Positions 6,558-64,000 of a DNA stretch of 64,000 bases are shown in pieces. The stretch spans positions 78 to 64,077 of the IMG/VR virus record IMGVR_UViG_3300005673_000131; one strand, written 5' to 3'. Numbering within the stretch: position 1 is the first letter of the stretch; each line of letters opens with the position of its first letter. Position numbers and translations under genes: made by a program. The stretch is from a virus (lineage: Duplodnaviria; Caudoviricetes). The notes beneath the pieces are model-generated. The model saw only the letters and a program-made list of their open reading frames with translations. It ran no database searches and was not told where the DNA came from.

Positions 6558-6565
6558 GGAGTGCG

Positions 6566-7157: not shown

Positions 7158-7173
7158 GAGAGGGCATTGAGAT

Positions 7174-7596: not shown

Positions 7597-7609
7597 CGAG
7601 GTAGGACCT

Positions 7610-8107: not shown

Positions 8108-8114
8108 GGGCGCT

Positions 8115-8438: not shown

Positions 8439-8497
8439 GTTGCAATAATAACTAGAAGTCGGTACGCCAAAGAGAGGCAGCCGTAAGGGAGACACGC

Positions 8498-9514: not shown

Positions 9515-9520
9515 TCGCGC

Positions 9521-9991: not shown

Positions 9992-10005
9992 CCAGGGGGT
10001 CCTCC

Positions 10006-10959: not shown

Positions 10960-10961
10960 CA

Positions 10962-11492: not shown

Positions 11493-11495
11493 GGC

Positions 11496-22354: not shown

Positions 22355-22371
22355 GGGCGGCTCCTTTCGGC

Positions 22372-39380: not shown

Positions 39381-40496
39381 ATGGCACGTAAGGATCGGAA
39401 AGACCGGGGCCTGTTTGTCTACACGACGGCCGACGGATCGGAGTGGTTCGGCGTCCGACTCTACGCGCATGGACGGGCCCACAAGTGGCAAGGATTCCGG
39501 CGCAAGCAGGACGCGCGTAACTGGTATGACGACCGGAAGAAGGACTTGCGCGAGCATCGCCCTTTCCCTCCACGGCATGGGGAGTCCGGACCGACTCTCG
39601 CTGACATCATCGCGCACTACTTGGCCCAGGCGACCGACAAGAAGAACTATGCCGGCGAACAGGTGTACGGGAAATTTTGGACACAATTCCTCGGCGAACA
39701 ATCCCTTGCCAACCTCTCGGCGCCTCAGATTGATCGCGCTCGCACGCATTTGCTCGCACATGGGTCCTTTCGCGGGCCGTTGTCGCACTCCACGGTTAAT
39801 CGGTATCTCGCCTGGCTGCACCATGTCTGCGCCCTTGAAGTGAGAAAAGGCACGCTGCCGGCAAATCCCTGTCAGCTGAAAAAGTTCAAAGAGCCCAGTC
39901 CTCCGGAAGTGGAATTCAGCCACGACGAAGAACGCGCCCTGGCTCGAGAGTTGGGCCCCTATGCCTGCGTGCCCAGTCTCGCCATTCTGACGGGATTGCG
40001 GCAGGAAGAATTGCTCACGCTGCGGTGGGATGACCTGGATCTGGAGCGCGGCTACGGCAAGTTGCGCACCCCGAAAAGCGGGAAGCCGGAAGTCTTTCTG
40101 ATCAACCGCGATGCCCGGGATTTGCTCGAACGGCGGGACAGATATTCAGTGTGGGTCTTCCCGAACGAGAAGAATCCGCACGAGCCCGTGAACCATAAAA
40201 GCTGGTATAACAACAGGTTCAAGCCCGCGGCGAAGCGCGCCGGCATCGTCCTGTCGCGGAAGAGTGGAAAGACCTTCCACACCCTCCGGCATACGTTTGC
40301 GGCTCGGTTGCAACAAGCTGGCGTGGAAGTGAAAGACATCAAGGATTTGGGCCGGTGGAAGAGCTGGAAGGCGATGGAGCGCTACCTAAAGCGAGACCAT
40401 GGACGGCTGCGGAGTGCGATCGAGCGATTGCAAACGCGAACCACCCCTGAACCGCCCCTCATCCGGGAATCCAAAACCGGAAGTGACGCGACGTGA
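39381..40496 (+). CDS. int: Tyrosine integrase
   Basis: LTGLRQEEL (R), TPKS (K), FHTLRHTFA (HxxR), LGRW, ERY (Y); N-terminal arm-binding region. Confidence 0.95.
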   Translation: MARKDRKDRGLFVYTTADGSEWFGVRLYAHGRAHKWQGFRRKQDARNWYDDRKKDLREHRPFPPRHGESGPTLADIIAHYLAQATDKKNYAGEQVYGKFWTQFLGEQSLANLSAPQIDRARTHLLAHGSFRGPLSHSTVNRYLAWLHHVCALEVRKGTLPANPCQLKKFKEPSPPEVEFSHDEERALARELGPYACVPSLAILTGLRQEELLTLRWDDLDLERGYGKLRTPKSGKPEVFLINRDARDLLERRDRYSVWVFPNEKNPHEPVNHKSWYNNRFKPAAKRAGIVLSRKSGKTFHTLRHTFAARLQQAGVEVKDIKDLGRWKSWKAMERYLKRDHGRLRSAIERLQTRTTPEPPLIRESKTGSDAT

Positions 40497-42558: not shown

Positions 42559-42755
42559 GCGATGTCATGCGCAGTCAGTATCGCGAGTTGTCTGCGGATG
42601 AGAAGGCGCAAGTGTCCGAACTGAAACACATGGGCGAGAATTTTTGCAATTTGGTCGATGCGCTGCGACATGTGGACGATAACGGCGCGTTTGATCACGC
42701 TCGATCGCGCATGGAAGAAGCGGTGTTTTGGGCGGTCAAGGGTGTGACGGCATGA
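42555..42755 (+). CDS. Acb2/Tad1-like anti-defence sponge protein
   Basis: QYRELSADEKAQVSELKHMGENF resembles recalled Acb2 N-terminus; ARSRMEEAVFWAVKG resembles the recalled Tad1 LEEALMW helix. Confidence 0.7.
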   Translation: MSDVMRSQYRELSADEKAQVSELKHMGENFCNLVDALRHVDDNGAFDHARSRMEEAVFWAVKGVTA

Positions 42756-42985
42756 AGAATTTTCTTTTTGGCTTCATCCTCAGCGCAGTGCTGTTCACGG
42801 CTGCGTCGTGGGCGATGGAGAAGCCGCAGATTGTTCCGCTCAACGAGTTGTACGACTTGCACGGCACAGCTTCATCAGTAGATCACGGGTTCATTGTTCC
42901 GGCCTTTCAGTACGTCGCTGCGGAATGCTACACGCGCAATCAAGAGACGGGCGAGATGGAGCCGATTGCTCGCATTGCTCGTTGA
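42752..42985 (+). CDS. Small exported protein
   Basis: MKNFLFGFILSAVLFTAASWA|M signal peptide. Confidence 0.55.
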   Translation: MKNFLFGFILSAVLFTAASWAMEKPQIVPLNELYDLHGTASSVDHGFIVPAFQYVAAECYTRNQETGEMEPIARIAR

Positions 42986-43342: not shown

Positions 43343-45745
43343 GTGGCCAGCGCGACACTCGAGGCCCCGCACAGCTACACCAAAGCGCAATTCCCCAAGA
43401 AGCTACAACCTCTCTTCACTCCCTCTCGCTACAAGATTCTCCATGGCGGCCGCGGTGGCGCCAAGTGTCTTGCCCTTGGAACTCGCGTCATTATGGCGGA
43501 TGGCTCCTTGCGAGCCGTGGAAGATGTACAGCTTGGCGAGCAAGTTATGGGGCCTGATAGTAAGCCACGTACCGTGCTGTCTACCACTCGTGGAACCGGG
43601 CCTTTGTATCGGGTCGTGCAAACATCTGGCATGGCCTATGTGGTGAATGAACACCACATTCTGTCGCTAAAAAAATCAGTGTCGTCGAAGCGCGATGTGC
43701 GACTCATGCCAAGCGGCAATCTACGCTCCCCTCAAGGACGCTATCCTGATTGGGAAGATACGACCAATATCTCTGTCAGTGAGTTTGTTCGGCAAAGTAA
43801 ACAATGGCAGTCACATTTCCTTGGCTATCGTGCGGGTCTACTGAACTTTGATAAACGCGCCATCGATATAGAGCCGTACTTGCTTGGTCTGTGGCTCGGG
43901 GATGGTACGGGTCGCGAGTTGCGCATTACCTCCGCTGATGAAGAAGTAATTGCGTATTGTCGAGAGTATGCGGCAATGCGGAGTGGATCATGTTCCGTGA
44001 TTCACAAGCCAGGACACAAAGCCAAGGACATTGGCCTCTCTCTGCGTCATGGTCGATATAACAGTTTATGGGAACCGTTCAAGCGATACAGCCTTAAGAA
44101 TAATAAACATATCCCTCATGACTATCTTACGAACAGTGAAGAGGTACGATTAAAGCTGCTCGCTGGATTGGTGGATTCTGACGGTGCAAAGCATCATGGT
44201 GGGTATGTCATTGCACAGACAAATGAACGGCTCGCGCGTGATATCAAGTATCTAGCGGATACATTGGGATTTCGCACGAGTTTAAACCTGCGCAAGACTG
44301 TGTGTTCGAATAATGGGGCATGTGGGGTGGCCTGGTATGTCTCAATCAGTGGCGATACGTGGCGCATTCCATGTCTAGTACCGCGTAAACGCGTCGATGT
44401 TGGGGAGTTGCGAAAAAACAAGAACTTCCTTTTGTCACAGGTATCGGTTGAGCCGGTCGGTGAGGGTGAATGGGCGGGTTTTTCCTTGGACGGCGATCAT
44501 CTTTTCCTCTTGGAAGATGGGACGGTGACGCATAACTCCTGGGGTGTGGCTCGCGCACTCTTGATCAAGGGCGCGTCTCAGCGGCTCCGTGTGCTGTGTT
44601 GTCGGGAAGTCCAGGACAGCATCAAGGATTCGGTGCACAAGTTGCTCAAGGACCAAATTGAGCTATTGGGCATGGGGTCTGTGTACGATGTCTTGCGCGA
44701 TGAAATTCGCGGCCATAACGGAACGGAATTTCTCTTCTCTGGGCTCTCTGATCTGACAGCCGAATCCATCAAGTCGTTTGAGGGTGTCGATATCGTCTGG
44801 GTCGAAGAGGCCCAGTCGGTCAGCAAGAATAGCTGGACGATCCTGATTCCGACGATTCGCAAAGAGAAGTCTGAAATCTGGATGACGATGAATATCATCC
44901 TGACGACCGACGACACCTACGTGCGCTTCATCGAGAACACGCCTCCCGATTCCATCGTGATCGAAATCAACTACCGGGACAACCCGTGGTTCTCGACCGT
45001 GCTGGATCAGGAACGATTGCACTGCAAGGCGACGGAGACCCAAGAAGAGTACGAGCATATCTGGGAAGGCAAGCCGCGTATTACGCTGGCCGGTGCCATT
45101 TATGCGCGGGAAGTGGCCGCGATGATCCGCGAAGGCCGCTATGCGCCCTGCCCCTACGACCCTCGCCTGAAGGTGCATACGATCTGGGACCTCGGCTGGA
45201 ATGACGCAATGGCGATCGGCCTGGTGCAGCGTGCGCGCTCGGAAGTCCGGTTCATCGCCTACTACGAAGACTCGTACAAGAAAACCGATGAGTGGGCGGC
45301 TGAACTCAACAAGCTCCCCTACAACTGGGGCTGGGATTATTTGCCGTTTGATGGCTTCTCGCACGATCGCCGATCCGGCTCAAACGACTACAAAATCCTG
45401 AAAGCCTTCGGCCGCAAAGTGAAACCGGAGAATGAATCCATCCCCAAGATGGATCTCGAATCCGGCATTCGTTCCGCGCGCAACATGCTGGCCGTCACGG
45501 TGCTGAACAAGGGTGGCGTCGGGATCGATCGGCTCATGGAAGTCTTGAAGCGCTATCGGCGGCATATTTCGAAGACGACCAATGAGCCCGGCGCGCCGGT
45601 GCATGACGAGTTTTCCCACGGGGCGGACATGGTTCGGCATACGTCGCTCGTGCGAGACAAATTGAGCAATGAGGATGAGGGGATGCGGAGACCGGTTGTG
45701 CAGTCTGCGCGGCCGATGGATTCATCTATGGGCCTGTTGGGGTAA
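43343..45745 (+). CDS. terL: Terminase large subunit (PBSX/P22-like) containing an intein
   Basis: HGGRGGAK/S Walker A split by the intein; CCREVQDSIKDSV; VWVEEAQ Walker B; WDLG nuclease motif; HGADM. Confidence 0.95.
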   Translation: MASATLEAPHSYTKAQFPKKLQPLFTPSRYKILHGGRGGAKCLALGTRVIMADGSLRAVEDVQLGEQVMGPDSKPRTVLSTTRGTGPLYRVVQTSGMAYVVNEHHILSLKKSVSSKRDVRLMPSGNLRSPQGRYPDWEDTTNISVSEFVRQSKQWQSHFLGYRAGLLNFDKRAIDIEPYLLGLWLGDGTGRELRITSADEEVIAYCREYAAMRSGSCSVIHKPGHKAKDIGLSLRHGRYNSLWEPFKRYSLKNNKHIPHDYLTNSEEVRLKLLAGLVDSDGAKHHGGYVIAQTNERLARDIKYLADTLGFRTSLNLRKTVCSNNGACGVAWYVSISGDTWRIPCLVPRKRVDVGELRKNKNFLLSQVSVEPVGEGEWAGFSLDGDHLFLLEDGTVTHNSWGVARALLIKGASQRLRVLCCREVQDSIKDSVHKLLKDQIELLGMGSVYDVLRDEIRGHNGTEFLFSGLSDLTAESIKSFEGVDIVWVEEAQSVSKNSWTILIPTIRKEKSEIWMTMNIILTTDDTYVRFIENTPPDSIVIEINYRDNPWFSTVLDQERLHCKATETQEEYEHIWEGKPRITLAGAIYAREVAAMIREGRYAPCPYDPRLKVHTIWDLGWNDAMAIGLVQRARSEVRFIAYYEDSYKKTDEWAAELNKLPYNWGWDYLPFDGFSHDRRSGSNDYKILKAFGRKVKPENESIPKMDLESGIRSARNMLAVTVLNKGGVGIDRLMEVLKRYRRHISKTTNEPGAPVHDEFSHGADMVRHTSLVRDKLSNEDEGMRRPVVQSARPMDSSMGLLG
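43466..44536 (+). mobile_element. Intein (357 aa) with LAGLIDADG homing endonuclease
   Basis: Starts CLALGTRVIMADG, ends HLFLLEDGTVTHN with Ser at +1; LLGLWLGDG and LAGLVDSDG blocks; lower GC. Confidence 0.95.
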
Positions 45746-46576: not shown

Positions 46577-46885
46577 AGATCAGCGAAATTCCCAGCGAGG
46601 ACTTGGAAGGGCAATTGCTCGCACACATTGAGCGACATGCACGCCTGTGCGTCCCCGGGCACCAATCGCACGACGATGCGCTGTGGATGCGAGAGGCTGT
46701 TGAAGAACTCCGCTTGCGCCGACTGGCCAGGAGTGCGGGATGATCCTATTCGGAGCCCTCGTCATTCTCATGCTCGGAATTGCCGATTGCGACGCGCAAA
46801 AGACGAGACGCGAATATATCAAGGCTGGCATGTGCGAAAGCGGAAAAGATCATTGGCAGCCGTGTCACAGCAAGGAGCAGACTCC

Positions 46886-49378
46886 ATGACCTCCACCGTC
46901 GAACTCTCCCCCGACATCCAAGCCCTCTGCGATGAGTATCAGGCCATCGTCGATGCGGCGCATGCATCCCAACCGAAGCAGAAATCGCGTGTGCCGGAAG
47001 ATGTGCTGCGAGACTTGTGCGTCCTCTACACGCAGAAGCGGGATACGTTCGTGAAAGGCCGCCAGGCCTCGGGGATTGAAGACGTCTGGATGGCGGCGGA
47101 AGAGGCCTATGTCGGGATCGACGATGCGAACCGGCATGAGTACCGCACGGCCAAGTGGTGCAAGCCCATGACCAAAGAAGGGCCGGTGCAGAAGGAACTG
47201 CAGCCGGACCAGAAGGATATTCGCTCAACCGTCTTCGTCCGTTTGACGGCACGGTATGTCGATGCCGGAGCTGCGAAACTGGCCGAAATCCTCTTGCCTC
47301 CCGATGACAAGGCGTTCTCGATCGAGCCGACGCCGGACCCTGAGTTGATTGCCCAACAGAAGAGTGATGCCCAAGTGGTTGATCCGGAGACCGGACAGCC
47401 TCTTGAGCGGGACCCTCGGCCGGAAGAAGTGGCGTCGGCGGTTGCCTCGCCGCCGATTCCCTCGCCGTTGGCGGCTCCTGGTCCTGTCGCGCCTCCCCCT
47501 TCGGGCGTGCCGGGGATGCCAGGAGTTCCGCCAGCGCCGGGAATGGATCTCGCCAAGATGCCTGGTGTGCCGCTCAAAGAAAAAGACCTCGCACAAGAGC
47601 GGATGGAGAAGGCGAAGGACGCCGCGGAGAAGGCCGAGACGAAGATCTATGACTGGATGGTCGAGTGCAAATACACGCGCGAAGCCAGGAAGATCATCTT
47701 CGATAGTGCCAAGTTGGGGGTCGGCGTCTTGAAAGGGCCGTTCCCGATTGTGCAGAAGGTGCGCGCGGTCTCTCGAGAAGGCGGACGCTACACCATTCGC
47801 ATGGTCGAGAAGATCGTCCCCTGTCTCAAGCGCATCAGCCCGTGGGACTTTTATCCCGATCCGAATTGCGGCGAGAACATTCATGCCGGCAGCGCAATTT
47901 TTGAGCGCGACCTGATTTCTGAGCGGCAACTGGCCGCACTCAAGAAGGACCCCAGCTACCTTGCCGATCAGATCGACCAGGCCATCATCGAAGGGCCGTC
48001 GAAGAAATATGTCGATGATCATCGGGAAGTGACCACCTTGACCGATGAGCGCTATGAAATCTGGCATGTGAGCAGTGTCCTGTCTCGCGAGGACATGCTG
48101 TCACTCAACGCGCTGCGCCGGGATATTGATCGCGAGCAGGGCGATGGGGAATTGCCGGAGGAGATGCCGGAAATCAGCGTCTCACTCACGATGGTCAATG
48201 ATCGCATCATCAAGGCGGTGCCGAGTCACCTAGATAGCGAGCGCTTCACCTACAACGTGATGTCGTGGCAGCGTCGAGAGGGCCATTGGGCTGGGGTCGG
48301 CATCGCCGAACAAGGCTCAGCCCCCCAGCGTATCGTGAACGCGGCGACGCGCGCCATGCTCAACAACGCCGGGAAAGCGGCCGGTGGGCAGATTGTCATG
48401 GATCGGGAAGCGGTCGAGCCGGCCGATGGGCAATGGACACTCCTCGGCGACAAGCTCTGGTACAAGGGCGCCGAATGTGACGACGTGCGGAAGGCGTTTG
48501 GCCTCTTCACCTTCCCGAATTTCCAGGAGCCGTTGATGAATATCATCAACTACGGCATGCGGCTCATGGAGGAATCGACCAACATTCCGCTCATCACGCA
48601 AGGGCAATCGGGCGATACCACACCGGAGACGTTGGGCGCAACCGAACTGCAAAACAACAACGCGAACCAGCTGTTGCGGTCCATCGGCTACACCTATGAC
48701 GACGACATCAACGGGCCAGTGGTCGATCATCTCTACGAATGGCTCTTGCTCGATCCGGACGTGGACGACGACTGCAAGGGCGACTACAAGATCAACGCGC
48801 ATGGCAGCGCGTCCCTGGTCGAGCGGCATATCCAAAACCAATTCCTGGCGACCTTGGCCAATGCCGCGGTCAATCCGGCCTATGGGATGGACCCCAAGAA
48901 GTGGTCAGACGAAATCCTCAAGGCCAATCGCTACGACCCGCGCAAGCTCAAATACAGCAAAGAGGAACAGGAGAAGATCGACAAGACGCCGCCGCCGCCC
49001 CCACCGCAAGTCCAGGCCGCACAGATCCGGGCCCAGGTGGATCAGCAGAAGGCCCAGCTTGACGCGCAGACCAGAACGGAGATTGCCGCGCGAGATACGG
49101 ATCGCGATAAGGCCTATGTCGAGGCCGAGACCGAACGGACCACGAACGAGCATCAGGCGCGCATGGTCGAACTCAATCTGAAGCGCGAACTCGCCATGCT
49201 GGACTATGCCAACAAGCGGGAAATGACCCTGGAGCAAGTGAAGGCGGATCTCGCCATGAACACCCAGAAGCTCCAGGTGCAGCGGGAATTGTCGGAGAAG
49301 GATCGTGCGGCGGAAGTGTTGAAACCGCCAACGGAGCCGGAAGGTAGAGCGCCGGTCGGTCAATCATGGGAGAAATAG
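46886..49378 (+). CDS. Portal protein
   Basis: AAGGAG RBS at ATG 46886; ISPWDFYPDP, GVGIAEQ, LITQGQ, DYKINAHGS; C-terminal coiled-coil barrel; follows terL. Confidence 0.9.
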   Translation: MTSTVELSPDIQALCDEYQAIVDAAHASQPKQKSRVPEDVLRDLCVLYTQKRDTFVKGRQASGIEDVWMAAEEAYVGIDDANRHEYRTAKWCKPMTKEGPVQKELQPDQKDIRSTVFVRLTARYVDAGAAKLAEILLPPDDKAFSIEPTPDPELIAQQKSDAQVVDPETGQPLERDPRPEEVASAVASPPIPSPLAAPGPVAPPPSGVPGMPGVPPAPGMDLAKMPGVPLKEKDLAQERMEKAKDAAEKAETKIYDWMVECKYTREARKIIFDSAKLGVGVLKGPFPIVQKVRAVSREGGRYTIRMVEKIVPCLKRISPWDFYPDPNCGENIHAGSAIFERDLISERQLAALKKDPSYLADQIDQAIIEGPSKKYVDDHREVTTLTDERYEIWHVSSVLSREDMLSLNALRRDIDREQGDGELPEEMPEISVSLTMVNDRIIKAVPSHLDSERFTYNVMSWQRREGHWAGVGIAEQGSAPQRIVNAATRAMLNNAGKAAGGQIVMDREAVEPADGQWTLLGDKLWYKGAECDDVRKAFGLFTFPNFQEPLMNIINYGMRLMEESTNIPLITQGQSGDTTPETLGATELQNNNANQLLRSIGYTYDDDINGPVVDHLYEWLLLDPDVDDDCKGDYKINAHGSASLVERHIQNQFLATLANAAVNPAYGMDPKKWSDEILKANRYDPRKLKYSKEEQEKIDKTPPPPPPQVQAAQIRAQVDQQKAQLDAQTRTEIAARDTDRDKAYVEAETERTTNEHQARMVELNLKRELAMLDYANKREMTLEQVKADLAMNTQKLQVQRELSEKDRAAEVLKPPTEPEGRAPVGQSWEK

Positions 49379-50340
49379 TGGGCAACTCAGGGATTTACAA
49401 GATTGAGTTAGTGTCAAAGGGATGGGTCTATGTCGGGAGTGCAGTTGACCTTACTCGTCGGTTGTCACGACACATTACAGAGCTTAAGTATCACCGACAC
49501 TGCAATAGATTCTTGCAGAAAGCATGGGATGAGTACGGTGGTGAAGCTTTCGCATTTTCTGTCCTTGAGCGCGTTGCCGACAAAACCCAATTGATCGCTC
49601 GCGAGCAGTACTGGATGGATATCTTGGAAGTGTGTGGTCCGGCAGGATTCAACATGTGCCCTACGGCAGGAAGCGCGCTTGGTATCAAGAAGGATGATGA
49701 ATCGATACGAAAAACTGTCGCCGCGCACATTGGATCGAAGCGCTCAGATGAAACCAAGGAAAAGATTCGAATTGCTAGAGCTAGACAGCGAATTAGCGAG
49801 TCAACAAAGGCCAAATTATCAGAGAGAATGAAGGGGTGGAAGCCAAGCGCCGAAATGTTATCCCGTGCATTGGCTTCACGGTTAGGCGTCAAGCGATCAC
49901 CGGAAACAATTGCCAAGATGCGTATAGCCGCAACTGGGAGACCGAAGACACAATCGGAGATTGAAAAACTTCGCCTTGCCATGAAGGGCAGAAAATTGAG
50001 TGCCTTAGCATATGAAAAAAGTCGAGAGTATTGGTTGGGCAGAACTCATACGGAGGCAACCAAGCAGAAAATTTCAAAGGCTAGCGCGTCTCGGAAGCAT
50101 ACCGCCGAAGCGAGGGCGAAAATAAGCGTGTCACTTAAGGGAAGGCCTAAGCCTGAAGGTTTTGGTGCAAGAGTGGCAGCGCGGCTGCTAGGCGTAAAGC
50201 ATTCCCCGGAGCGATGTAAAAATGTGTCGCTAGCGTTGATGGGAAGAGTTATTAGCCAAGAAACCATTCAAAAGCGCATCGCCACTAGGCAAAGGAATAA
50301 AGCACAACGGGCTGAACCGGGGAAGAGTTTCCAGCAATAA
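49366..50340 (+). mobile_element. Freestanding GIY-YIG homing endonuclease with NUMOD3 repeats
   Basis: SGIYKIEL...VYVGSAVDLTRR; repeated H/R-S/T-x-E-T-K-x-K-I; lower GC; overlaps the portal stop. Confidence 0.9.
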
Positions 50341-53250: not shown

Positions 53251-54330
53251 ATGAGCATACATACCTATACGTTAACCGATCAACGGCGCCTCGGACGATT
53301 CGCCGGAGCCATTGTCGCGCACGCACAGCCAGAAGAGCGGTTGGCTCGGCAGGGTCGGCAGATCACGCGCACCTTACCGATGAACGAAGGCGACACCTAC
53401 GTTGGCCGTCGATTCCTCCCGTATGGCGCCCTCTCGACCAACTTCAACACCATGAACCAGTTCTTTGCGAACGGGACTGGGGACCGGAGCGCAGCCGTCG
53501 TGACGGCGCATCAGGTCGCAGACGGACAAACTCCGCTGCCTGACAGCCTCACGCCGATGGACATGGAAGTCACCATCCATGAGTACGCCTGTCTGTACGG
53601 CTTCACCAACCGGACGGCGGATCTCTATGAGGATGACATTCCGGCCCAGATGAAGATCCAGATTGGCGAACGGACCACGTTCGTCAATGAGCAAATCCTG
53701 TATGGCTACCTGAAGGCCTGCACCAACCAGTATTACGGCGGGACCGGCACGTCGATTTCCACGGTCAACGGGGCCATCAGTCTCGGCATGTTGCGCCGGA
53801 TCACGCGCAACCTGAGCGCCAACCATGCGCGACCGGTTACCAAGATGCTCGGCGCGGGCTCGGGCTTCAATACCGCCTCCGTGATGGCCGGGTGGTTTGT
53901 GTATGTGCACAGCGATGCCGCCTCGGACATCCGCGACCTTCCGAACTTCATCGATGCGAAGGATTACGCCTCGGGGACACCGGTCCCAGGCGAAATCGGC
54001 GCGGTCGAAGAGTTCCGCTTCATCATGCATCCGGATTTGCCCTCTCGGCAGGATGCGGGAGCGGCCGTTGGCTCAACCAATCTCGCGAGCACGTCAGGCT
54101 CCAACATCGACGTGCACCAGTTCATCGTGTGTGCCCAGGACGCCTGGAGCCAGATTGCCTTACGCGGTCGCAACTCCGTGGAGGCCACCTTCTTGCCGGT
54201 GGGCCAGAAGACCAAGGCCGATCCCTTTGGCCAGCGCGGCTATGCCGGCGCCAAGTGGTGGAAGGCGGTCCTGATCGAGAATAACGGATGGATGGCCGTC
54301 GGCAACATCGGGGTAAAAAACCTGAGCTAA
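53251..54330 (+). CDS. Major capsid protein, N4-gp56 family
   Basis: LPMNEGDT..RRF, G.P..GEIGAVEEFRFI, KADPFGQRGYAGAKWW. Confidence 0.9.
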   Translation: MSIHTYTLTDQRRLGRFAGAIVAHAQPEERLARQGRQITRTLPMNEGDTYVGRRFLPYGALSTNFNTMNQFFANGTGDRSAAVVTAHQVADGQTPLPDSLTPMDMEVTIHEYACLYGFTNRTADLYEDDIPAQMKIQIGERTTFVNEQILYGYLKACTNQYYGGTGTSISTVNGAISLGMLRRITRNLSANHARPVTKMLGAGSGFNTASVMAGWFVYVHSDAASDIRDLPNFIDAKDYASGTPVPGEIGAVEEFRFIMHPDLPSRQDAGAAVGSTNLASTSGSNIDVHQFIVCAQDAWSQIALRGRNSVEATFLPVGQKTKADPFGQRGYAGAKWWKAVLIENNGWMAVGNIGVKNLS

Positions 54331-56007: not shown

Positions 56008-56700
56008 ATGACCTTTCTCGAACTCGTCCAGCGATTGAAGCAGGACTGTAGCGTCTCTGGGACGGGCCCCATCACGACGCTCAATCAAGTGGGCGATTTC
56101 AAGCGCTTGGTCGATTATGTCGTCCAAGCCTGGATCGACATTCAATCGCTGCATCAAGACTGGAAGTTCCTGCGCCTCCCGGCGACTTGGACGTCGATCG
56201 ATGGCCAGGCCAGCTACACGACAGCCCAGTGCGGCATTTCGGCGGGCACGTTCAGCCGGTGGGTGCCGGAATGGAACAACCTCCGCGGCTATCTCACATC
56301 TGTCGGCACGCCCGGCGAGTTCTACATCAACGAGATTCCCTACGAGTCCTGCAAGTCCTTGTGGGGCTACAACACCAATCGGGATGTGAAGGCCCAGCCG
56401 TCGCAATACGCCATCGCGCCAGATAACTCCATCACCTTCGGTCCGAAGCCTCCAGCTGGCTATACGTTCGTGGCTGATTACTATCGGTCGCCAGTAACCC
56501 TTTCGGCCAATGCCGATGTGCCGGCGCTCCCTCCGGCGCATAGCCCGCTCATCATCATGTATCGGGCCATGATGACATTTGGCGTCACGAAGGCGGCGCC
56601 TGAGCTGTATACGCTCGGCTCACAGGAATACAAGCGGCGGCTCGCACTCTTACGGCAAGACCAATTGCCGGCCATCCGCCAAGCAGGAGCCCTCGCCTAA
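56008..56700 (+). CDS. Head-tail adaptor
   Basis: MTFLELVQRLKQDC...AWIDIQSLHQDWKFL; position before the nozzle. Confidence 0.75.
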   Translation: MTFLELVQRLKQDCSVSGTGPITTLNQVGDFKRLVDYVVQAWIDIQSLHQDWKFLRLPATWTSIDGQASYTTAQCGISAGTFSRWVPEWNNLRGYLTSVGTPGEFYINEIPYESCKSLWGYNTNRDVKAQPSQYAIAPDNSITFGPKPPAGYTFVADYYRSPVTLSANADVPALPPAHSPLIIMYRAMMTFGVTKAAPELYTLGSQEYKRRLALLRQDQLPAIRQAGALA

Positions 56701-58772
56701 TGGCACCCACTCCCACCATGCCGATGCCGGTGATCAAGGATGATGTCACCACGTTGAAGGGCGGCCTCGATCAGCTGACGCCGACGCTGGCGCTCGGGCC
56801 TGGATTCTGCCGGGAAGCGGTCAATTTCGAATGCGCGGCCACAGGGGGCTACTCGCGTGTCGGAGGCTATGAGCGTTACGACGGACGGCCCAGTCCATCC
56901 GGTGGGGTCTATGCCATCGTCCAGATTTCGAGCTTCGTCAACACGCCGACGGCTGGGCAAACCCTGACCGGAGCGACCTCCTCGGCAACCGGGACTATTC
57001 TCGAACTGGGCGACAACTATCTCGTGGTCATGCCGCTGACGGGCACGTTCGACGAGGGGGAAATCGTCTCGGTCGGCATGACGATGATCGGACTGACGGT
57101 GGCACTCTCCGTCTCTGTGACGACCGAACAGCAAGCCCAATATCTCAATCTCGCGGCTGATGTCTTGCGCTCCAACATCCAGCCGGTACCGGGGTCTGGG
57201 CCCATCCGCGGGGTGGTCTCGCACTTCCTGGCCGGCGTCTACAACATCTACGCCTTCCGCGACAATGCCGGAGGCACGGCCTGCAATATGTTCCGCGCGA
57301 CCTCCTCCAGCTGGTCGCAAATGACCCTCTTCAACGAGGTGGAATTCTCGGCGGGAGGACCATCGATCCCGGCCGATGGCGACACCCTCACACAAGGCGG
57401 CAATACCGCCATCGTCAAGCGCGCAGTGCTCGAGTCGGGAACCTGGGCGAGTTCAACGGCAGCCGGACGCTTGATCGTCACCACGCCTACCCCTGGCAAC
57501 TTTACCGCGGGCGCCGCCACCATCGGCGCGATTCCGGTCACGCTCGGCGGGGCGCAGACGGCCATCACGTTGGCGCCTGGCGGACAGTACGAGTTCGACC
57601 TCGGCAACTTCTCTGGGCAACTCTCGACGCGTCGGATCTATGGGGCGGATGGCATCAATCGGTGCTTTGAGTGGGATGGCTTCGTGTTTGTGCCGATTCG
57701 CACCGGTGCCGCCGTCGATACCCCGAAACACATCCGCGTCCATCACAACCATCTGATCATCTCAATCGGTAGCTCCATCATGGGGTCCGGTATCGGAACG
57801 CCCTACAACTGGACGGCCCTCGCGGGGGCGTTCGAGAAGGCGACCGGCGACACGATCACGAACATGCTCGTCCAGCCTGGCGACCAGGACAATGCCACCC
57901 TCGCGATCTGGGGGCGCAACAGCACTGGGATGCTGTATGGCACGAGCACAAGCAATTTCAAGTATGTGGACTATGCAAGGGCCTCTGGCGGTATCGACTA
58001 CATGGCCCAGAACCTCGATCAGAGCTATGTGCTCGATGATCGCGGCGTGGTGGCCCTTCGGACGGCCCAGGAATTCGGCAACTTTGCCGACGCCACACTC
58101 ACGCGCAACATTCAGCGGTTCATCGAAGAGAAGCGGTCGCTGGCGGTGTGCTCGGCCATCAACAAGGACAAGTCGCAATATCGGGCCTTCTTTTCCGATG
58201 GCAGCGCGCTCTATGTCACGCTCGTCAACGGCAAACTCATTGGCTCCATGCCGCAGCGCTTCGCGCATCCCTTCTCCTGCGTGTGGAATGGCGAGCATAC
58301 CAATGGTTCCGACATTTCCTTCGCCGGGGCGGCGGAAGATGGCTACGTCTACCAACTCGATATTGGGGCTTCGTTCGACGGCGAGCCGATCGATGCCTCC
58401 CTCACACTCAATTGGAATTTCGTGAAGAGTCCGCGGTGGGAGAAGCGCTACCATGGCGCCAGCATTGAAATCCAAGGACTGTTCTATTCGCTGATTCAGA
58501 TCGGCTACTTGCTCGGGTACAACTCCGAGGAGATTCCGCAACCCACGCCGGCTGACTACGAAAGCGATATTGGCGGATCGGGCCATTGGGATGACGCCTT
58601 CTGGGATGCGTTCTCTTGGGATGGCCGCACGCTCTCGCCGACCGAAGTGCCACTCGATGGGCGCGCGGAGAACATTCAATTCACGCTCGCCTCCAGCTCT
58701 GACTATATCTACCCCTACACCATTAACAGTCTGATCCTTTCGTATTCCATGGGGAGGCGCGTTCGCCGATGA
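56700..58772 (+). CDS. Tail nozzle/tubular protein (beta-propeller, P22 gp10-like position)
   Basis: LKGGLDQLTP...GGYSRVGGYERYDG; beta-rich 690 aa; no signal peptide. Confidence 0.75.
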   Translation: MAPTPTMPMPVIKDDVTTLKGGLDQLTPTLALGPGFCREAVNFECAATGGYSRVGGYERYDGRPSPSGGVYAIVQISSFVNTPTAGQTLTGATSSATGTILELGDNYLVVMPLTGTFDEGEIVSVGMTMIGLTVALSVSVTTEQQAQYLNLAADVLRSNIQPVPGSGPIRGVVSHFLAGVYNIYAFRDNAGGTACNMFRATSSSWSQMTLFNEVEFSAGGPSIPADGDTLTQGGNTAIVKRAVLESGTWASSTAAGRLIVTTPTPGNFTAGAATIGAIPVTLGGAQTAITLAPGGQYEFDLGNFSGQLSTRRIYGADGINRCFEWDGFVFVPIRTGAAVDTPKHIRVHHNHLIISIGSSIMGSGIGTPYNWTALAGAFEKATGDTITNMLVQPGDQDNATLAIWGRNSTGMLYGTSTSNFKYVDYARASGGIDYMAQNLDQSYVLDDRGVVALRTAQEFGNFADATLTRNIQRFIEEKRSLAVCSAINKDKSQYRAFFSDGSALYVTLVNGKLIGSMPQRFAHPFSCVWNGEHTNGSDISFAGAAEDGYVYQLDIGASFDGEPIDASLTLNWNFVKSPRWEKRYHGASIEIQGLFYSLIQIGYLLGYNSEEIPQPTPADYESDIGGSGHWDDAFWDAFSWDGRTLSPTEVPLDGRAENIQFTLASSSDYIYPYTINSLILSYSMGRRVRR

Positions 58773-60205
58773 CACGTCTAGTCCTGCTGATTGTGATGGC
58801 CCTCGCGATACATGCGCCGGCCTGGGCGAACGATTTCTACAATCATGGCAGCTTCCCGGCTCCTGGGAGTCCGGCCACGTCGGCCGGTATGCGCGCCGAA
58901 TTCGACCTGATTACGGCGGGATTCGATAAGCTGCCGGCCCTCTCCGGCAATGCCAACAAGCTCGTGGTGATCAACGGCGCCGGGAGTGGGATGACCACGA
59001 CGGCAGGCACCATTAGCGTGCCCGTGGCATTGTCTCTCAATGGATCGTATGCGGCCACACTGAATCTGACCGGCACGACCACGCTCACGCTCCCAGAATC
59101 CGGCACGGTCTCCACGTTGGCCGGCACAGAAACGCTCTCAAACAAGACCATCTCGGCGCCAACCATTACGGGCTCAGCGACCTTTTCGAGCGCCGGGCCA
59201 CACTCCATCGGTGCCTCAAATAGCACGCAGAGCCAGCTGTATCTGGCGGGCACCTTTGCGCCTGGCGGGAGTTCCTGGGGTGCGGCCCTGAACGTGCGTA
59301 CCGCCATTACCGGACAGGCCGGGCAGGATGCCTCAGGAGTGGTGATCTGGCCGGCGTTCACGGAGGCCGGGAGCGGCACGCATGGATGGGTGACGTCGTC
59401 AGAGATTAGCCCGCCGACGATTACCGGAGGGGCGGCCACCATCACGAACGCGGCCACACTCCGCATTACCGGTACGCCGACCGAAGGCGCCAACAACTAT
59501 GCGCTCTATGTGTCCAGCGGGACGGCTCGATTTGACGGGGGCAATTTAACAATCGGCGTCGGCAGCACGGGCGGCGTGAATCCCTACCTCAAGCTGAATG
59601 ACGGTACATCCGACAGCTTCGTGCAGGTCGTCTCCGGCAATATGAATCTGAACACGCTCAACCATGTGTCGTTCTCGCCTGGGTTGAGCGAAAAGGCGCG
59701 CATCACCAGTGACGGCATCATGCTGGTGGGCTCGACGGATGCCACGACCTTGACGGCTGGAGGACTGGGCCTGCTGGGCGGCATGCGGCTCGCGGAGATA
59801 TCTGATCCCACAGCGCCTACCACCAATCATCTCATGCTCTACGCGCGGGACGATGGCTCAGGCAATACCGTCTTGGCCGTGCGCTTTCCGACCGGCAACC
59901 CCATCACGATTGCACGCGAGAACGTCGGTGTCATTCCTCCTGGAACGGTCCATTTCTGGGGCGGTGGTGCGGCGCCATCAGGCTGGTTGCTGACGGATGG
60001 GAGCAATGTAAGCAGAACGACGTATTCAGCATTGTTCAGCGCGATCGGGACGACATTCGGAAGCGGAGACGGAAGTACAACATTCGGACTTCCGAACCTC
60101 GCAAACTACGCGACCAACGTCAAGGGCATGATCAAGTGCAAGGCCAAGAAGGCTTTCCCCTGGCGCACGATTGACCAACCGGACTCATTGAGGAGGGCGG
60201 CTTAA
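58769..60205 (+). CDS. Tail fibre with tail-collar domain and an N-terminal signal peptide
   Basis: MTRLVLLIVMALAIHAPAWA|NDFY...MRAEFDLITAGFDKLP; C-terminal PPGTV..WGGGAAPSGWLLTDGSNVSRTTYSALFSAIGTTFGSGDGSTTFGLPNL collar. Confidence 0.85.
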   Translation: MTRLVLLIVMALAIHAPAWANDFYNHGSFPAPGSPATSAGMRAEFDLITAGFDKLPALSGNANKLVVINGAGSGMTTTAGTISVPVALSLNGSYAATLNLTGTTTLTLPESGTVSTLAGTETLSNKTISAPTITGSATFSSAGPHSIGASNSTQSQLYLAGTFAPGGSSWGAALNVRTAITGQAGQDASGVVIWPAFTEAGSGTHGWVTSSEISPPTITGGAATITNAATLRITGTPTEGANNYALYVSSGTARFDGGNLTIGVGSTGGVNPYLKLNDGTSDSFVQVVSGNMNLNTLNHVSFSPGLSEKARITSDGIMLVGSTDATTLTAGGLGLLGGMRLAEISDPTAPTTNHLMLYARDDGSGNTVLAVRFPTGNPITIARENVGVIPPGTVHFWGGGAAPSGWLLTDGSNVSRTTYSALFSAIGTTFGSGDGSTTFGLPNLANYATNVKGMIKCKAKKAFPWRTIDQPDSLRRAA

Positions 60206-60678
60206 TGCGACGTCTACTGCGAGGAATTCTGACGCTGGCCCTGCTCTGGGCGACTGTGCCTGCGTATGCGGCAAACGATCTGACGCTCGATCAGGGGGAT
60301 GGAACATTCCAGAAGCTGGGCGGGGTCGGCGATCGCGCGAAGGTCGTAAGTTCCGGCGGCGCTGTCCAAACTCTCACCATTGCCTCTGGCGTGACCACGA
60401 ATACTACATCTTCGGCTGTCGCGGGGGTTACCGGCACTAAAACGATCTGGGGCGAAGTGGTGTGTTCCTCTGGGGCCTGTGCGCAGACGCAAGCCATCTA
60501 TGGGGCACGCGAGAATGGCGCAGCCAATGGCCTGCTTCTCTGTACACTCGCGCTCTCAGGAACCGCACGCGCTCAAGATGTCTGTACCGGAGTGACGGCG
60601 GATTATCCCTATCTGTATGTGATCACGACGAATACGTCTGGAACAGCGGCGGAGGGAGGGACCTATGTATTTCAATAA
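60205..60678 (+). CDS. Small beta-rich accessory protein with signal peptide
   Basis: MRRLLRGILTLALLWATVPAYA|A; four Cys. Confidence 0.7.
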   Translation: MRRLLRGILTLALLWATVPAYAANDLTLDQGDGTFQKLGGVGDRAKVVSSGGAVQTLTIASGVTTNTTSSAVAGVTGTKTIWGEVVCSSGACAQTQAIYGARENGAANGLLLCTLALSGTARAQDVCTGVTADYPYLYVITTNTSGTAAEGGTYVFQ

Positions 60679-61516
60679 AATAGCGCTAGCCGTATTGCTG
60701 ACGCTCTGCGTGTCACCCGCTTGGGCGGATGGCGTGACGACTTCTGCGGCTGGCAGTCCTTACGGGACGCTCGGGCAGAACCAAACGATTTTCACGGCCA
60801 GCGGCACTTTCGCGGTGCCTGCCAACATCAACAAGATTTGGGTGTCCGGTTGTGGCGCAGGCTCCGGTGGAGCAGGAGGCCATTCGGCTGACCCCGGTGG
60901 CGGGGGCGGCGGCGGCGCGCCAGGTATTGCAGTCTCGAATGCACTGATCCAAGTGGCGCCAAGCTCAACGCTAACGATTACGATCGGCACAGCCGGAGTG
61001 GGGGGTGCTGCGGGATCTGCTGGTGGTGGAGTGAACACCGATACCACCATTGCGGGTCTTCCGATCGGTACGTATACGCTGGGTGGACAAACGAGTGCGG
61101 CCGGTGTGGGCACGGTAACGAACGGTGGGTCGGGGGGACGGAATCGAGATTCCTTAGCGACAAGCGGCGGCTCGGGTGCCGGGACGGCGAGTACCGCCGT
61201 TGCGTCCAAGACATCCGGTGGGGATGCGCTCTGGACGGTATCGGGGGGCGCGGGAGGAGGAGCGACCGGGCCTGGGGCGGGAGGGGCCTCATCGCCTACT
61301 GGTAACTATCACACGTCCAACATCGCTGGTGGAGCAGCAAGCGGCACAAAAGGCGGCGGTGGGGCCGGTGGGTCGTCCCCGTTTGGATCTGGTGGCGCTG
61401 GCGGCACGAACAGTATAGGGTCAAATGCGACAGGATATTGCAGTGGTGGCGGCGGCGGGGCAGCGACGTTTGCGGGCGGCGATGGGTCAGGCGGGTATTT
61501 GGTGATTCGGTACTAA
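60665..61516 (+). CDS. Glycine-rich tail-fibre-type protein with signal peptide
   Basis: MYFNKIALAVLLTLCVSPAWA|D; FTASGTFAVPANINKIWVSGCGAGSGG...GGDGSGGYLVIRY Gly-rich domain. Confidence 0.8.
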   Translation: MYFNKIALAVLLTLCVSPAWADGVTTSAAGSPYGTLGQNQTIFTASGTFAVPANINKIWVSGCGAGSGGAGGHSADPGGGGGGGAPGIAVSNALIQVAPSSTLTITIGTAGVGGAAGSAGGGVNTDTTIAGLPIGTYTLGGQTSAAGVGTVTNGGSGGRNRDSLATSGGSGAGTASTAVASKTSGGDALWTVSGGAGGGATGPGAGGASSPTGNYHTSNIAGGAASGTKGGGGAGGSSPFGSGGAGGTNSIGSNATGYCSGGGGGAATFAGGDGSGGYLVIRY

Positions 61517-63057
61517 TGCGTTACCTTAGCGTGCTCATCATCTTTCTGTGCAGTGTGTCGACCGGCTGGGCCATGGGCGATCAGGAAGTGCTGTATGTGC
61601 GCCCGGTGGGAGCCTGTTCATTTAGTGGGAATGGGACGGCCTACGGTTGCGCCGCGTCGACGAATGCTGCGGGAGCCTTCATTGGGCTGAATAAGCCCCT
61701 ATGGTCGGCGACAGACGCGCAAGTTGGCAAGATAGACCCGAATGACATCCTCTATGTCTGTGGGACGCATGATGCGTCCAACGCCTCATTTCGACTCGCC
61801 CCCACGACGGATGGGAATGCGACAGATGGACATATCATTCTGGACGGCGCGTGCCCAAATGATCCTGGCGTGATTGACGGCAAAGGCGCTGGTGTTCGTT
61901 TGGTCCAGCTCGACACTCGGCATTACTTCTGGACGAGGAATCTCACGATTCAGAATGCCAGCGGGCAGGACTATGCCATGAGTATTTACTATGGCGGTTC
62001 GCGCATCGAGAATCGCTTTATGATTGTCGAGAATTGCCGATTCCTCAATAACGCGACCCTCTCTGTGATTGACTTCTGGGGGCATGAGCTGATTGTCACC
62101 GGGAACTATTTCGATGGGGCTGGCAGTGATGTGGTGCATATCGAGGGCGGAAAGAATGTCACCTATACAGACAACATTTGCATCAATTTTTCGCAAGTCG
62201 ACCATAACGGAGATTGCCTGCAATTCAACAGCACCATGCTGTCTGATACCGGCACCACCTTGATTCAACGGAATTACTGCAAGAAAGAAACAGACCTCAA
62301 GTACTGCTTCCTTGTTGGAGATCGTACCGGCTACACGGAGATTAGCGACAACTACACGGAATGTCCATTTGCCACAGCGAATCCGATTGGGTGTAGCCCC
62401 ATCCTCGTGGAAGGGAAGTCTGGGAACACAACCTTTCAGATTCGCGTGTGGCGAAACACGATCAAGTATGGGCATCGGTGTCTCACCTTATATGGCGGCA
62501 ACAACCCCAACGACCGACAGCAAGTGATCGGGAACGTGATCATCGGATGTGGGTCCATGGGGGTATGGGTCAACAGCGCGACCGATAACGTGCTCATTGC
62601 GAACAACACGATTGCGGAAAACGGCCTCTTGCACATCACGGCGCTGGGAGAACATGGCGTGTATATCGGCAAACAAAATTCCACTGCCGTCACCGTGATC
62701 AACAATCTGTTCTATGGAAATTATTCAGGGATCTTCTATACCGGTACTATTGGGGCCACGCCGACCTATAACGGCTATTACGGGCAGGTGGGGTTCAACA
62801 TCCACAGAGCCGGGACGGGCTCAATTGCCGTGGATGCGTCTGAGAAAACAGAAGATCCGAAACCGCTACCAAACGGAGCGAGGCCGTATCGTCTCGATGG
62901 CCCATCGCCGTTACGGAAAGGTGGGACGGCGGTGGACGAGTGCCTATCACGAGACGGTCAACTATGTAATAGCCCGCCAGATATCGGAGCGTATCAAGCG
63001 CATCATGGTGGAGTGGCGACTGGCGTTTCGACATACGCGGCAGGACCGAAACATTAA
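61516..63057 (+). CDS. Right-handed beta-helix tailspike/adhesin with signal peptide
   Basis: MRYLSVLIIFLCSVSTGWA|M; Asn-ladder repeats; C-terminal DIGAYQ. Confidence 0.8.
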   Translation: MRYLSVLIIFLCSVSTGWAMGDQEVLYVRPVGACSFSGNGTAYGCAASTNAAGAFIGLNKPLWSATDAQVGKIDPNDILYVCGTHDASNASFRLAPTTDGNATDGHIILDGACPNDPGVIDGKGAGVRLVQLDTRHYFWTRNLTIQNASGQDYAMSIYYGGSRIENRFMIVENCRFLNNATLSVIDFWGHELIVTGNYFDGAGSDVVHIEGGKNVTYTDNICINFSQVDHNGDCLQFNSTMLSDTGTTLIQRNYCKKETDLKYCFLVGDRTGYTEISDNYTECPFATANPIGCSPILVEGKSGNTTFQIRVWRNTIKYGHRCLTLYGGNNPNDRQQVIGNVIIGCGSMGVWVNSATDNVLIANNTIAENGLLHITALGEHGVYIGKQNSTAVTVINNLFYGNYSGIFYTGTIGATPTYNGYYGQVGFNIHRAGTGSIAVDASEKTEDPKPLPNGARPYRLDGPSPLRKGGTAVDECLSRDGQLCNSPPDIGAYQAHHGGVATGVSTYAAGPKH

Positions 63058-63102
63058 GGGAGTTGGAATTTCCGACAAACGACGAACCGGATAGGAGGAT
63101 CT

Positions 63103-63573
63103 ATGCAACGACTCATGACGCTCTTTGCAATGCTGGTGTTGGTGGTGATGACGGGCTGCATGATGCCCATGAAGACCAAGGTGACGAAGGACGGCTTTAC
63201 GGCTCGTCAAAAGACGACGGAGAGCCATAGGGCCATTGTTGAGGACTACGACGTCTATCGCACCGATTGCCGGTACGACCAACTCGCCAAAGATAAGGAT
63301 GGCGAATATTACTGTCCTGCTGACGCCAGCAAGGAAGGCTACAACAGCCACGTTCAACTCGCTCAGTACATGGAGTCCGTCTTGGACAAGTGGGGCCCTG
63401 AAGCGCTGAAAGCTGGCGTCTTCCTGGGAAGTGCTGGACTTATTCGTGATGGACTTCGCTCGCAAGCCGTGAGCCCCGGTGTGCAGCAGGGCGGGAACAG
63501 CATCAGCACGTTTGTCGCGTGTGGAAGCGGGAAGGCCTTTGACCAGATACAGGGCGCTCCAGGCTGCAAATAA
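63103..63573 (+). CDS. Lipoprotein
   Basis: MQRLMTLFAMLVLVVMTG|C; GGAGG RBS. Confidence 0.65.
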   Translation: MQRLMTLFAMLVLVVMTGCMMPMKTKVTKDGFTARQKTTESHRAIVEDYDVYRTDCRYDQLAKDKDGEYYCPADASKEGYNSHVQLAQYMESVLDKWGPEALKAGVFLGSAGLIRDGLRSQAVSPGVQQGGNSISTFVACGSGKAFDQIQGAPGCK

Positions 63574-63603
63574 TCGGTGTCACTGACCAATAAGGAGAAC
63601 GGC

Positions 63604-63903
63604 ATGTTGAAGCTCGCGGGATATGTGGCGGCAGTCATGGTTGTGATGGTGGCCCTGCTCATGGGGCCAGTCTGGGCCATGGATCCGGCACAGACGAATT
63701 GCCCGGTTCAATTGCAGGACGCGCAGACACAAACCTTGCTGGTCGCCCAGTCGCGCGATCAGTACGAACAGCGCTTGGCGCAAGCCATTCGCGCCAATCA
63801 AGACTTGAGCCGGATGGCCGATGCGGCGTCGGCTGAAATCAAGAAGTTGAAAGAGGAACTGGCGAAGCTGAAACCGGCTCATCCAGAAGAGGCACCGAAA
63901 TAG
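63604..63903 (+). CDS. Exported coiled-coil protein
   Basis: MLKLAGYVAAVMVVMVALLMGPVWA|M; AAGGAG RBS. Confidence 0.65.
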   Translation: MLKLAGYVAAVMVVMVALLMGPVWAMDPAQTNCPVQLQDAQTQTLLVAQSRDQYEQRLAQAIRANQDLSRMADAASAEIKKLKEELAKLKPAHPEEAPK

Positions 63904-64000
63904 ATGGCGGAACTGTGGCTGATCTGGATCAGTCTCTTCCTGCTCGGGTTGATCGGTTTACTCGGTGTGGGTGCCGTCGTGGGTGCGATTCTCTGGTGGT
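63904..64000 (+). CDS. Partial membrane protein running off the window
   Basis: MAELWLIWISLFLLGLIGLLGVGAVVGAILWW. Confidence 0.5.
   Translation, partial: MAELWLIWISLFLLGLIGLLGVGAVVGAILWW

Follow-up and report, generated by a model that had tools for sequence, protein, structure and literature searches.

Signal-peptide-like leaders on the tail fibre and the genes downstream of it in an uncultured temperate podophage, and a possible periplasmic route to the virion

Textbooks place every step of tailed-phage assembly in the cytoplasm. Here we describe a 64-kb stretch of phage DNA from wastewater sludge (hereafter the window), which is all but 77 bases of the 64,077-base IMG/VR record IMGVR_UViG_3300005673_000131, rated complete by CheckV, and in which the tail fibre gene and nearly all genes following it start with a leader of the make-up of a Sec signal peptide. 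The window is a complete temperate podophage genome, with a portal and a head-to-tail adaptor of the type found in phage SU10. We are largely confident that these N-terminal extensions are genuine export signals, and to judge from the sequence the host-recognition apparatus of this phage is probably sent to the periplasm, not to the cytoplasm. The whole chain of events, including the joining of exported fibres to virions, is held more tentatively, at slightly short of an even balance. More doubtful again is the wider proposition that a branch of uncultured podophages has its receptor-binding apparatus exported by Sec, trimmed and added after the holin breach, with at least four switches between the two routes.

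The leaders were called by a rule of our own, which takes into account the charge of the n-region, an 8-residue hydrophobic core, the -3/-1 rule and the lipobox; its false-positive rate is estimated at about 2%, from 11 flagged among 571 genes upstream of the fibre at 80-odd related loci (numbered with the prefix L below). The six N-termini pointed out by the first-pass annotation are present as it described them, with the contexts HAPAWA/NDFY (58769), VPAYA/AND (60205), SPAWA/DGV (60665), STGWA/MGD (61516) and GPVWA/MDP (63604), the slash marking the predicted cut, and with a lipobox LVVMTG/C (63103), which fits the PROSITE-style pattern and whose cysteine is kept in the homologues of L009 and L001. 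The leaders in the window have an n-region charge of +1 to +3 and uncharged hydrophobic cores of 11-20 residues, typically 11-14; in the six listed N-termini, each with a basic n-region, the cores have 12-20. For the fibre and the majority of the genes behind it we read the leader as a signal peptidase I substrate, and for one or two genes as a lipoprotein leader; the leader end AALA/C of 4060 is ambiguous between the two signal peptidases. The first-pass annotation had seen no such peptide on capsid, scaffold, decoration, portal, adaptor or nozzle, and the rule-based scan likewise found none on capsid, portal, adaptor and nozzle or on the remaining head genes.

The run of leaders turned out to be longer than first noted. 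It extends from 58769 across the contig end to 6557 and comprises the fibre and 10 of the 11 following genes, so that within this run of 12 the rule flags 11 genes, as compared with 6 among the 60 others in the window (Fisher p 4.5e-8). Past the contig end, a leaderless gene (48) is followed by five leader-bearing ones (271, 1446, 2870, 4060 and 4524). We take the run to continue over this end because in the relative L001 a homologue of 63604 is followed by a homologue of the leaderless gene; the contig is either a permuted circle or cut at 64000. Of the six flagged genes outside the run, two are spanin candidates, two are small open reading frames (ORFs), one codes for a multi-pass membrane protein and one is a likely false call.

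As for the start codons, Shine-Dalgarno-like motifs precede nearly all genes of this cassette, whose starts mostly overlap the stop of the preceding gene. The fibre ATG overlaps the nozzle stop (ATGA) and lies 11 bases past GGGGAGG, and the only in-frame start codons of the fibre are codons 1, 9, 10 and 41. There is hence no start codon between the leader and the invariant residues N21-S38, which means that the leader must be translated. The true start at 61516, which has a TAATG overlap with the preceding gene, is not that of the longest ORF (61438), and the GTG at 1446 is preferred to 1242. Taken together with the homologues described below, the rule and the start codons indicate that the leaders are real, translated and conserved, with the make-up expected of Sec signal peptides.

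The coordinates of the fibre, the cassette and the landmark genes are collected in Table 1, in which the cassette is listed in gene order across the contig end.

Table 1. Fibre, downstream cassette and landmark genes of the window.
Feature	Coordinates	Strand	Evidence and remarks
Integrase	39381-40496		temperate lifestyle
Large terminase	43343-45745
Portal, SU10-type	46628-49378		SU10 Pfam family
Major capsid protein	53251-54330
Head-to-tail adaptor, without leader	56008-56700	+	Pfam SU10_adaptor, E 3e-16
Nozzle (major tail) protein, 690 residues, without leader	56700-58772	+
Fibre leader, 20 residues (MTR, hydrophobic core, PAWA)	58769-58828	+	predicted signal peptidase I site before Asn21
Mature tail fibre	58829-60205	+	N-terminal anchor domain (~110 residues), middle part, C-terminal Collar domain
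Small protein, predicted exported, 157 aa	60205-60678	+	leader; conserved core ASGVTTNTTS; start overlaps fibre stop
Glycine-rich protein, predicted exported, 283 aa	60665-61516	+	leader; Pfam Gly_rich_2, E 2.9e-9
Right-handed beta-helix protein, predicted exported, 513 aa, 15 Cys	61516-63057	+	leader; Pfam Beta_helix, E 4.5e-8
Lipoprotein, 156 aa	63103-63573	+	lipobox VVMTG/C; lipobox homologues in L001 and L009
Small coiled-coil protein, 99 aa	63604-63903	+	leader or N-terminal anchor; weak Rz-like spanin match, E 1.3e-3
Leaderless gene, the only one in the cassette, 84 aa	48-302	+	place kept in relatives
Predicted exported protein, 388 aa, 6 Cys	271-1437	+	leader; no Pfam or PHROG match
Second beta-helix-like protein, 474 aa, 12 Cys	1446-2870	+	GTG start at 1446; leader; weak Chondroitinase B match below cut-off
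Concanavalin-A-like lectin/glucanase-fold protein, 397 aa	2870-4063	+	leader; Laminin_G_3, E 1.9e-4 (below cut-off); phrog_6368, E 5e-10
Small predicted exported protein, 155 aa	4060-4527	+	leader end ALA/C; leader-bearing homologue in L009
IPT/TIG and fibronectin type III protein, 677 aa, 12 Cys	4524-6557	+	leader; Pfam TIG, E 2.9e-8; fn3, E 5.5e-7; leader-bearing homologues in L001 and L009
Lysis region at the end of the cassette	6669-8107	+	tentative; soluble endolysin candidate, membrane proteins, spanin-like pair
Endolysin candidate, without leader or membrane segment	6669-7157	+	weak endolysin PHROG match, E 4e-3
Overlapping i-/o-spanin-like pair	7813-7986 and 7910-8107	+	tentative; lipobox LNG/C in the second

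The fibre family gives the strongest view of how the leader is related to the protein behind it. In a search of 5.8 billion proteins, the matches comprise close full-length relatives and many proteins sharing only the first ~110 residues, and 78 of the top 120 carry the anchor domain. A leader, with a median length of 21 residues, is present on 55 of these 78; the other 23 begin with M, MA, MS or MT and then the same Asn. Among the 55 leaders, position -1 is Ala in 35 and Ala, Gly or Ser in 49, position -3 is Ala in 32 and one of Ala, Val, Ser, Gly, Cys, Thr or Leu in 49, and position +1 is Asn in 51. One or two Lys/Arg residues occur in 49, Asp and Glu are absent from 48, the median best 8-residue Kyte-Doolittle score is 3.2, and in 46 the cut site lies 0-2 residues from the conserved domain. 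The predicted cut would leave an N-terminus equal, or within one residue, to that of the leaderless fibres after removal of Met. Such an exact A-x-A end at the domain boundary would be unexpected for a membrane anchor or another functional domain. Leaders are only 21-26% identical where the mature domains are 62-67% identical, and are composed of 26% Leu, 14% Ala and less than 1% Asp plus Glu; this pairing of a divergent leader with a conserved mature domain is typical of signal-peptide evolution.

A profile of the anchor domain, whose alignment has invariant positions N1, Y4, H6, P10, S18, R22, E24, G31, F32 and P36, found 2,475 members among 1.84 billion cluster representatives. In the best 150 of these 2,475, the domain starts fall into two separate groups, 100 of them at residue 2-4 and 50 at residue 20-31, and all 50 extensions pass the leader rule; no start lies in the interval. 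The first-pass annotation had held that leaders common in relatives would speak against export; they are indeed found on one third of the nearest representatives, yet this does not count against it. In a tree of 161 anchor domains (114 columns, many forks unresolved) the leader state changes about 9-11 times, a count that falls somewhat, as L031, L032 and L047 were scored there as leader-bearing and are actually leaderless, and at least 4 changes are forced by well-supported branches. The window fibre belongs to an all-leader clade of 30 rows, with a support of 96% in the Shimodaira-Hasegawa-like approximate likelihood ratio test (SH-aLRT). The leader thus appears as a lineage-wide trait which has been switched repeatedly.

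Several lines of evidence suggest that the leader-bearing protein is the virion's own fibre. An adaptor (225-244 residues), a nozzle (~600-750 residues) and the anchor domain follow one another in this order at each of the 74 loci that reach far enough upstream, for leader-bearing and leaderless fibres alike. The nozzle assignment of 56700-58772 is based on the 'head-closure' protein encoded after the adaptor by Vibrio phage 1.232.O and relatives, to which the window protein is 30% identical over 97% of the length. The segment behind the leader had been taken as the usual N-terminal anchor of podophage fibres, and this stands insofar as cultured relatives start directly with the segment and it follows adaptor and nozzle at all these loci. 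The C-terminal Collar domain noted earlier is clear as well (PF07484, precursor residues 392-446, E 1.4e-20, at 73.4 bits where the Pfam gathering score is 24). Moreover, in one lineage, made up of L012, L016 and L021, the leader-bearing fibre is the sole gene between nozzle and endolysin, and in L016 the whole stretch between the head genes and the giant protein described below lacks a second fibre-like gene; phages of this type must use the leader-bearing protein or lack fibres, since there is no other fibre gene. Structural data add little: the AlphaFold2 monomer of the precursor has a mean predicted local distance difference test score of 62, below 50 at residues 14-111, with a helix over the leader and another at 38-53, and a sequence search of solved structures with the fibre and the anchor-domain profile gave as its sole match the Collar domain against the 'long tail fiber' chain 8kec. 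In the cultured-phage collection, the DNA of the region, the whole fibre and the anchor domain had no match, and the nozzle alone found relatives.

The cassette behind the fibre codes for a pair of beta-helix proteins, one protein each of the concanavalin-like, TIG/fn3 and glycine-rich kinds, a lipoprotein, a small coiled-coil protein and several proteins without a known family. The beta-helix protein at 61516 is, by its fold family, likely a polysaccharide-cleaving enzyme. Leaders in this position vary together with the leader of the fibre: 53 of 107 genes downstream of leader-bearing fibres are flagged versus 25 of 176 after leaderless ones (Fisher p 2e-10; per-locus Mann-Whitney p 2.5e-4), p values which overstate the independence of these related loci, and the 25 are mostly holins, spanins and membrane-spanning internal proteins. 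In the family of 60205-60678 a leader occurs in 114 of 120 homologues; an Atlas model of this protein resembles small phage beta-sandwich proteins, which we take as a lead only. Other export signals are found at the same place in relatives. The third cassette gene of the 63-kb relative L010 (11757-13124) has a twin-arginine-like leader, MTRRELVKMAGK followed by VALVQA, before a polysaccharide deacetylase domain, which would put this enzyme on the twin-arginine translocation (Tat) route instead of Sec, and the cassette of L009 has a lipobox on a GDSL esterase. With three types of export signal sharing one genomic place, export itself seems to be the common purpose of the cassette.

Putting these results together, the route we favour would be as follows. 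The fibre and the cassette proteins would be made late, from the same tightly packed operon as head and tail, pass unfolded through SecYEG and be cut at A-x-A. In the periplasm the cassette proteins would fold and the fibre would trimerise, its cut N-terminus (Asn-x-Tyr/Phe-Tyr) being the same as in the leaderless relatives, and this segment would dock on the adaptor/nozzle. The cytoplasmic particles, filled with DNA and provided with portal, adaptor and nozzle, would stay without fibres and meet them once the inner membrane has been breached by the holin, or after the burst. On their domain layout, the cassette enzymes more likely act free on the host envelope or slime, or outside the cell, than on the particle. 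It is from sequence that we infer the exported pool to be what ends up on the virions and the joining to occur at lysis. Established knowledge of holin-endolysin systems relates to the last step, since a leaderless endolysin without a membrane segment implies a large-hole holin and hence a mixing of the compartments. P22 tailspikes and T4 fibres can be added to finished particles in vitro, which makes late addition of fibres physically plausible.

There are a number of points which weigh against this route. The leader calls come from one crude rule, and both the cleavage and the periplasmic pool as the source of particle fibres are proposed from sequence. To our knowledge no tailed phage completes its virions in this way; the literature was searched for signal peptides on tail fibres or tailspikes, and neither such leaders nor fibre export with addition at lysis were found described. 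The time from holin triggering to the dispersal of the lysate is short, so that efficient attachment of fibres is not assured. The cultured relatives found are all leaderless, and the leader-bearing type thus comes from uncultured sequences only. The MS/MS (tandem mass spectrometry) annotation of the Cellulophaga phage discussed at the end refers to virion preparations, and neither true membership of the particle nor cleavage of the proteins follows from it. Finally, the mature part of the fibre has a single cysteine, for which reason disulfide folding cannot be why the fibre is exported. Disulfide folding was also considered for the cassette, where the numbers of Cys are mostly even (2, 4, 6, 12, 12), but with one Cys in the fibre and cytoplasmic proteins that are Cys-rich this is not decisive.

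The main rival, which we regard as unlikely but still of real weight, accepts that the leaders export and supposes two pools of fibre: those on the virion would come from a cytoplasmic remainder, made up of uncleaved protein or of protein started at codon 9 or 10, and the exported ones would mask or destroy receptors, keep the progeny off debris, block superinfection, or loosen capsule and slime. Exported phage proteins acting on the envelope are well known, e.g. the Cor and Llp lipoproteins. The content of the cassette fits such work, as it is dominated by carbohydrate-active domains (beta-helix, deacetylase, GDSL, lectin-like), and in its enzymes the catalytic or binding fold starts straight after the leader with no recognisable particle-binding domain. 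For the fibre itself the supposition is less comfortable. Although GTG/ATG codons are present in frame at positions 9 and 10, they have no Shine-Dalgarno motif and their product would still begin with a hydrophobic stretch, and so strongly hydrophobic a leader should leave little protein in the cytoplasm. In addition, L012, L016 and L021 have no second fibre to put on the particle, and the coincidence of the cleavage site with the start of leaderless fibres is what would be expected if the cleaved form docks.

Alternatively, the hydrophobic N-termini might be uncleaved type II anchors, by which the fibre and its neighbours are tethered to the inner membrane, inactive or at the site of assembly until lysis. 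Some cores are long (20 residues in 63604) and our rule cannot surely separate anchors from leaders, but the typical cores of 11-14 residues are too short to span a membrane, and the bias to Ala and small residues at -3/-1 just before the conserved domain would be needless in an anchor. The docking domain also adjoins the hydrophobic segment without a linker, and lipobox and Tat-type leaders occur in the same cassettes; we therefore consider this explanation improbable.

Similarly little room is left for a third explanation, in which the cassette, perhaps with the fibre, is lysogenic-conversion cargo expressed by the prophage to decorate or remodel the surface of the lysogen. It draws on the temperate nature of the phage, shown by the integrase, and on the mosaic part of the cassette (~60377-63053), which has other flanks in wastewater runs. 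The first-pass annotation had left lysogen surface proteins as an alternative, which now loses most of its ground: besides the ATGA overlap, stop-to-start packing links the nozzle to the fibre and goes on through most cassette genes, the + strand showed no promoter-like site from the head genes to the cassette, and neither a sigma-70-like promoter nor a + strand terminator was found after the fibre. Furthermore, the cassette stands between tail and lysis genes in every relative, and the fibre anchor domain makes sense only on a particle. An artefact of wrong start codons or chance hydrophobic stretches is very improbable, for although the ORF lists hold longer alternatives for two genes (61438, 1242), the leaders are kept in hundreds of homologues despite sequence divergence, no start codon separates the fibre leader from the invariant residues, and only about 2% of upstream genes are flagged falsely.

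Regarding the surroundings of the cassette, DNA of the phage is present in bioreactor-sludge and wastewater runs of several studies. Its closest relative in genome collections, L001, is a syntenic 54-kb contig in a Magnetococcales metagenome-assembled genome bin, though the binning of phage contigs says little on the host. The lipoprotein at 63103 and the coiled-coil protein at 63604 form a conserved pair, found also in L001, L009 and L010 and separate from the pair at 7813-8107. Considered as a spanin pair, they are adjacent, with the weak Rz-like match given in Table 1, and lie 7 kb upstream of the lysis genes, which hold the second candidate pair; the L001 homologue of 63604 has a typical, cleavable-looking leader and not an anchor. 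At the lysis position, L001 and L012 have a hydrolase-like gene followed by a lipoprotein gene.

One part of the cassette, ~60354-63072 (the end of the 157-aa gene, the glycine-rich gene and the first beta-helix gene), is found in wastewater and sludge runs next to sequence that differs from its flanks in the window. One run covers it at a depth of 55.7, versus 13.8 for the rest of the phage. Loose ends lie at 60354/60377 and 63053/63072, and the stretch looks like a mosaic module swapped between phages. RNA-library contigs cover only ~60354-63106; such contigs cannot show transcription, and the uncovered parts prove nothing.

Downstream of the lysis region there are internal protein genes and then, at 12953-21589 (+), a gene for a protein of 2,878 residues, which has an InPase (E 4e-51) and an LPD38 domain (E 4e-38) and is of the 'large polyvalent protein' kind thought to be co-injected with the DNA; a giant gene at this position is also present in relatives and in Vibrio phage 1.232.O. 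Among the internal (ejection) protein genes lies a GNAT acetyltransferase gene (9521-9991, +), which is kept there in both leader-type and leaderless relatives. Directly 3' of the portal is a gene for a GIY-YIG homing endonuclease (49366-50340, +; phrog_314, E 1e-37), probably a recent insertion given its third-position G+C of 0.49 against ~0.7 in its neighbours. The two small signal-peptide-like ORFs outside the cassette, neither with a family match, are at 42728-42985 (+), upstream of the small terminase region, and at 21995-22387 (-), at the end of the minus-strand early block.

If the proposed route is true, the last step of virion assembly would depend on host Sec, signal peptidase and periplasmic folding, and the particles in infected cells would stay fibreless up to holin triggering. 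It would then be possible for fibres and depolymerases to be oxidised, or to be kept from the sugar precursors of the cytoplasm. Gene callers and host-range predictors which drop 'secreted' proteins as non-structural would miss receptor-binding proteins. For tailed phages, finishing the virion in the periplasm or in the lysate would count as a regular assembly option open to selection. With one domain family split, among its nearest cluster representatives, into one third with and two thirds without a leader, through several independent switches, the system is a directly testable one.

Among known systems, spanins, signal-arrest-release (SAR) endolysins and lipoproteins of the Cor/Llp type are exported phage proteins of known role; like the leaders of the window they use host Sec, and none of them is a fibre or another appendage of the virion. 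Nearest in print to the pattern described here are the signal-peptide genes of Porphyromonas phages, likewise users of host Sec, which are of unknown function and for which changes of the host outer membrane have been proposed, with no mention of tail parts (PMC10367356).

A cultured parallel is found in Cellulophaga phage phi10:1 (KC821618), in which five consecutive genes at 5848-12879, gp091-gp094 and the pectate lyase gp095, all have canonical leaders, and gp091-gp094 are annotated as 'structural protein, experimental MS/MS proteomics'; we found no comment on the leaders in the GenBank record or papers. As in the window, the leader-bearing genes form a run between the tail genes and the lysis region. 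In contrast to the window, phi10:1 is a Bacteroidota siphophage with unrelated proteins, and has Gln at or near +1 following the Bacteroidota rule. Cellulophaga phage phi18:1 has MS/MS-supported structural proteins without leaders. Phage phi10:1 offers the sole experimental hint that leader-bearing proteins in the fibre position occur in virion preparations.

A different parallel is given by the MAT fibres of Bdellovibrio bacteriovorus, phage-like trimeric adhesins, each of which has a conserved N-terminal domain of ~130 residues immediately behind its signal peptide (Caulton et al. 2024, PMC10769870). Since all of these fibres carry a signal peptide, phage-like trimeric fibres can fold after export (PMC10769870), but unlike the window fibre they are cellular, stand on the predator's own surface and involve no virus particle.

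For the docking, a comparison is offered by SU10 (Kuravirus), in which the first 90 residues of the long tail fibre gp12 dock on pairs of subunits of the adaptor gp11, at its fibre dock domain (PMC9509320). The adaptor and portal of the window belong to the Pfam families of SU10, whereas its fibre anchor domain has no sequence match to any solved chain. By this analogy the window adaptor probably carries a fibre dock, and docking of the fibre on the adaptor in the manner of SU10 is likely.

The closest cultured counterparts are Vibrio phages 1.232.O and 431E48.2 and Escherichia phage PTXU04, which have the same order of adaptor, nozzle (30% identical) and fibre as the window, with two such leaderless fibres in a row in PTXU04, a phage of E. 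coli. Their fibres share the opening of the mature window fibre, i.e. Asn-x-aromatic-aromatic, a basic residue and then F..LP. They start leaderless with M-(A/S/T)-N, whereas the window fibre has 20 additional signal-peptide-like residues and is followed by genes nearly all of which bear leaders.

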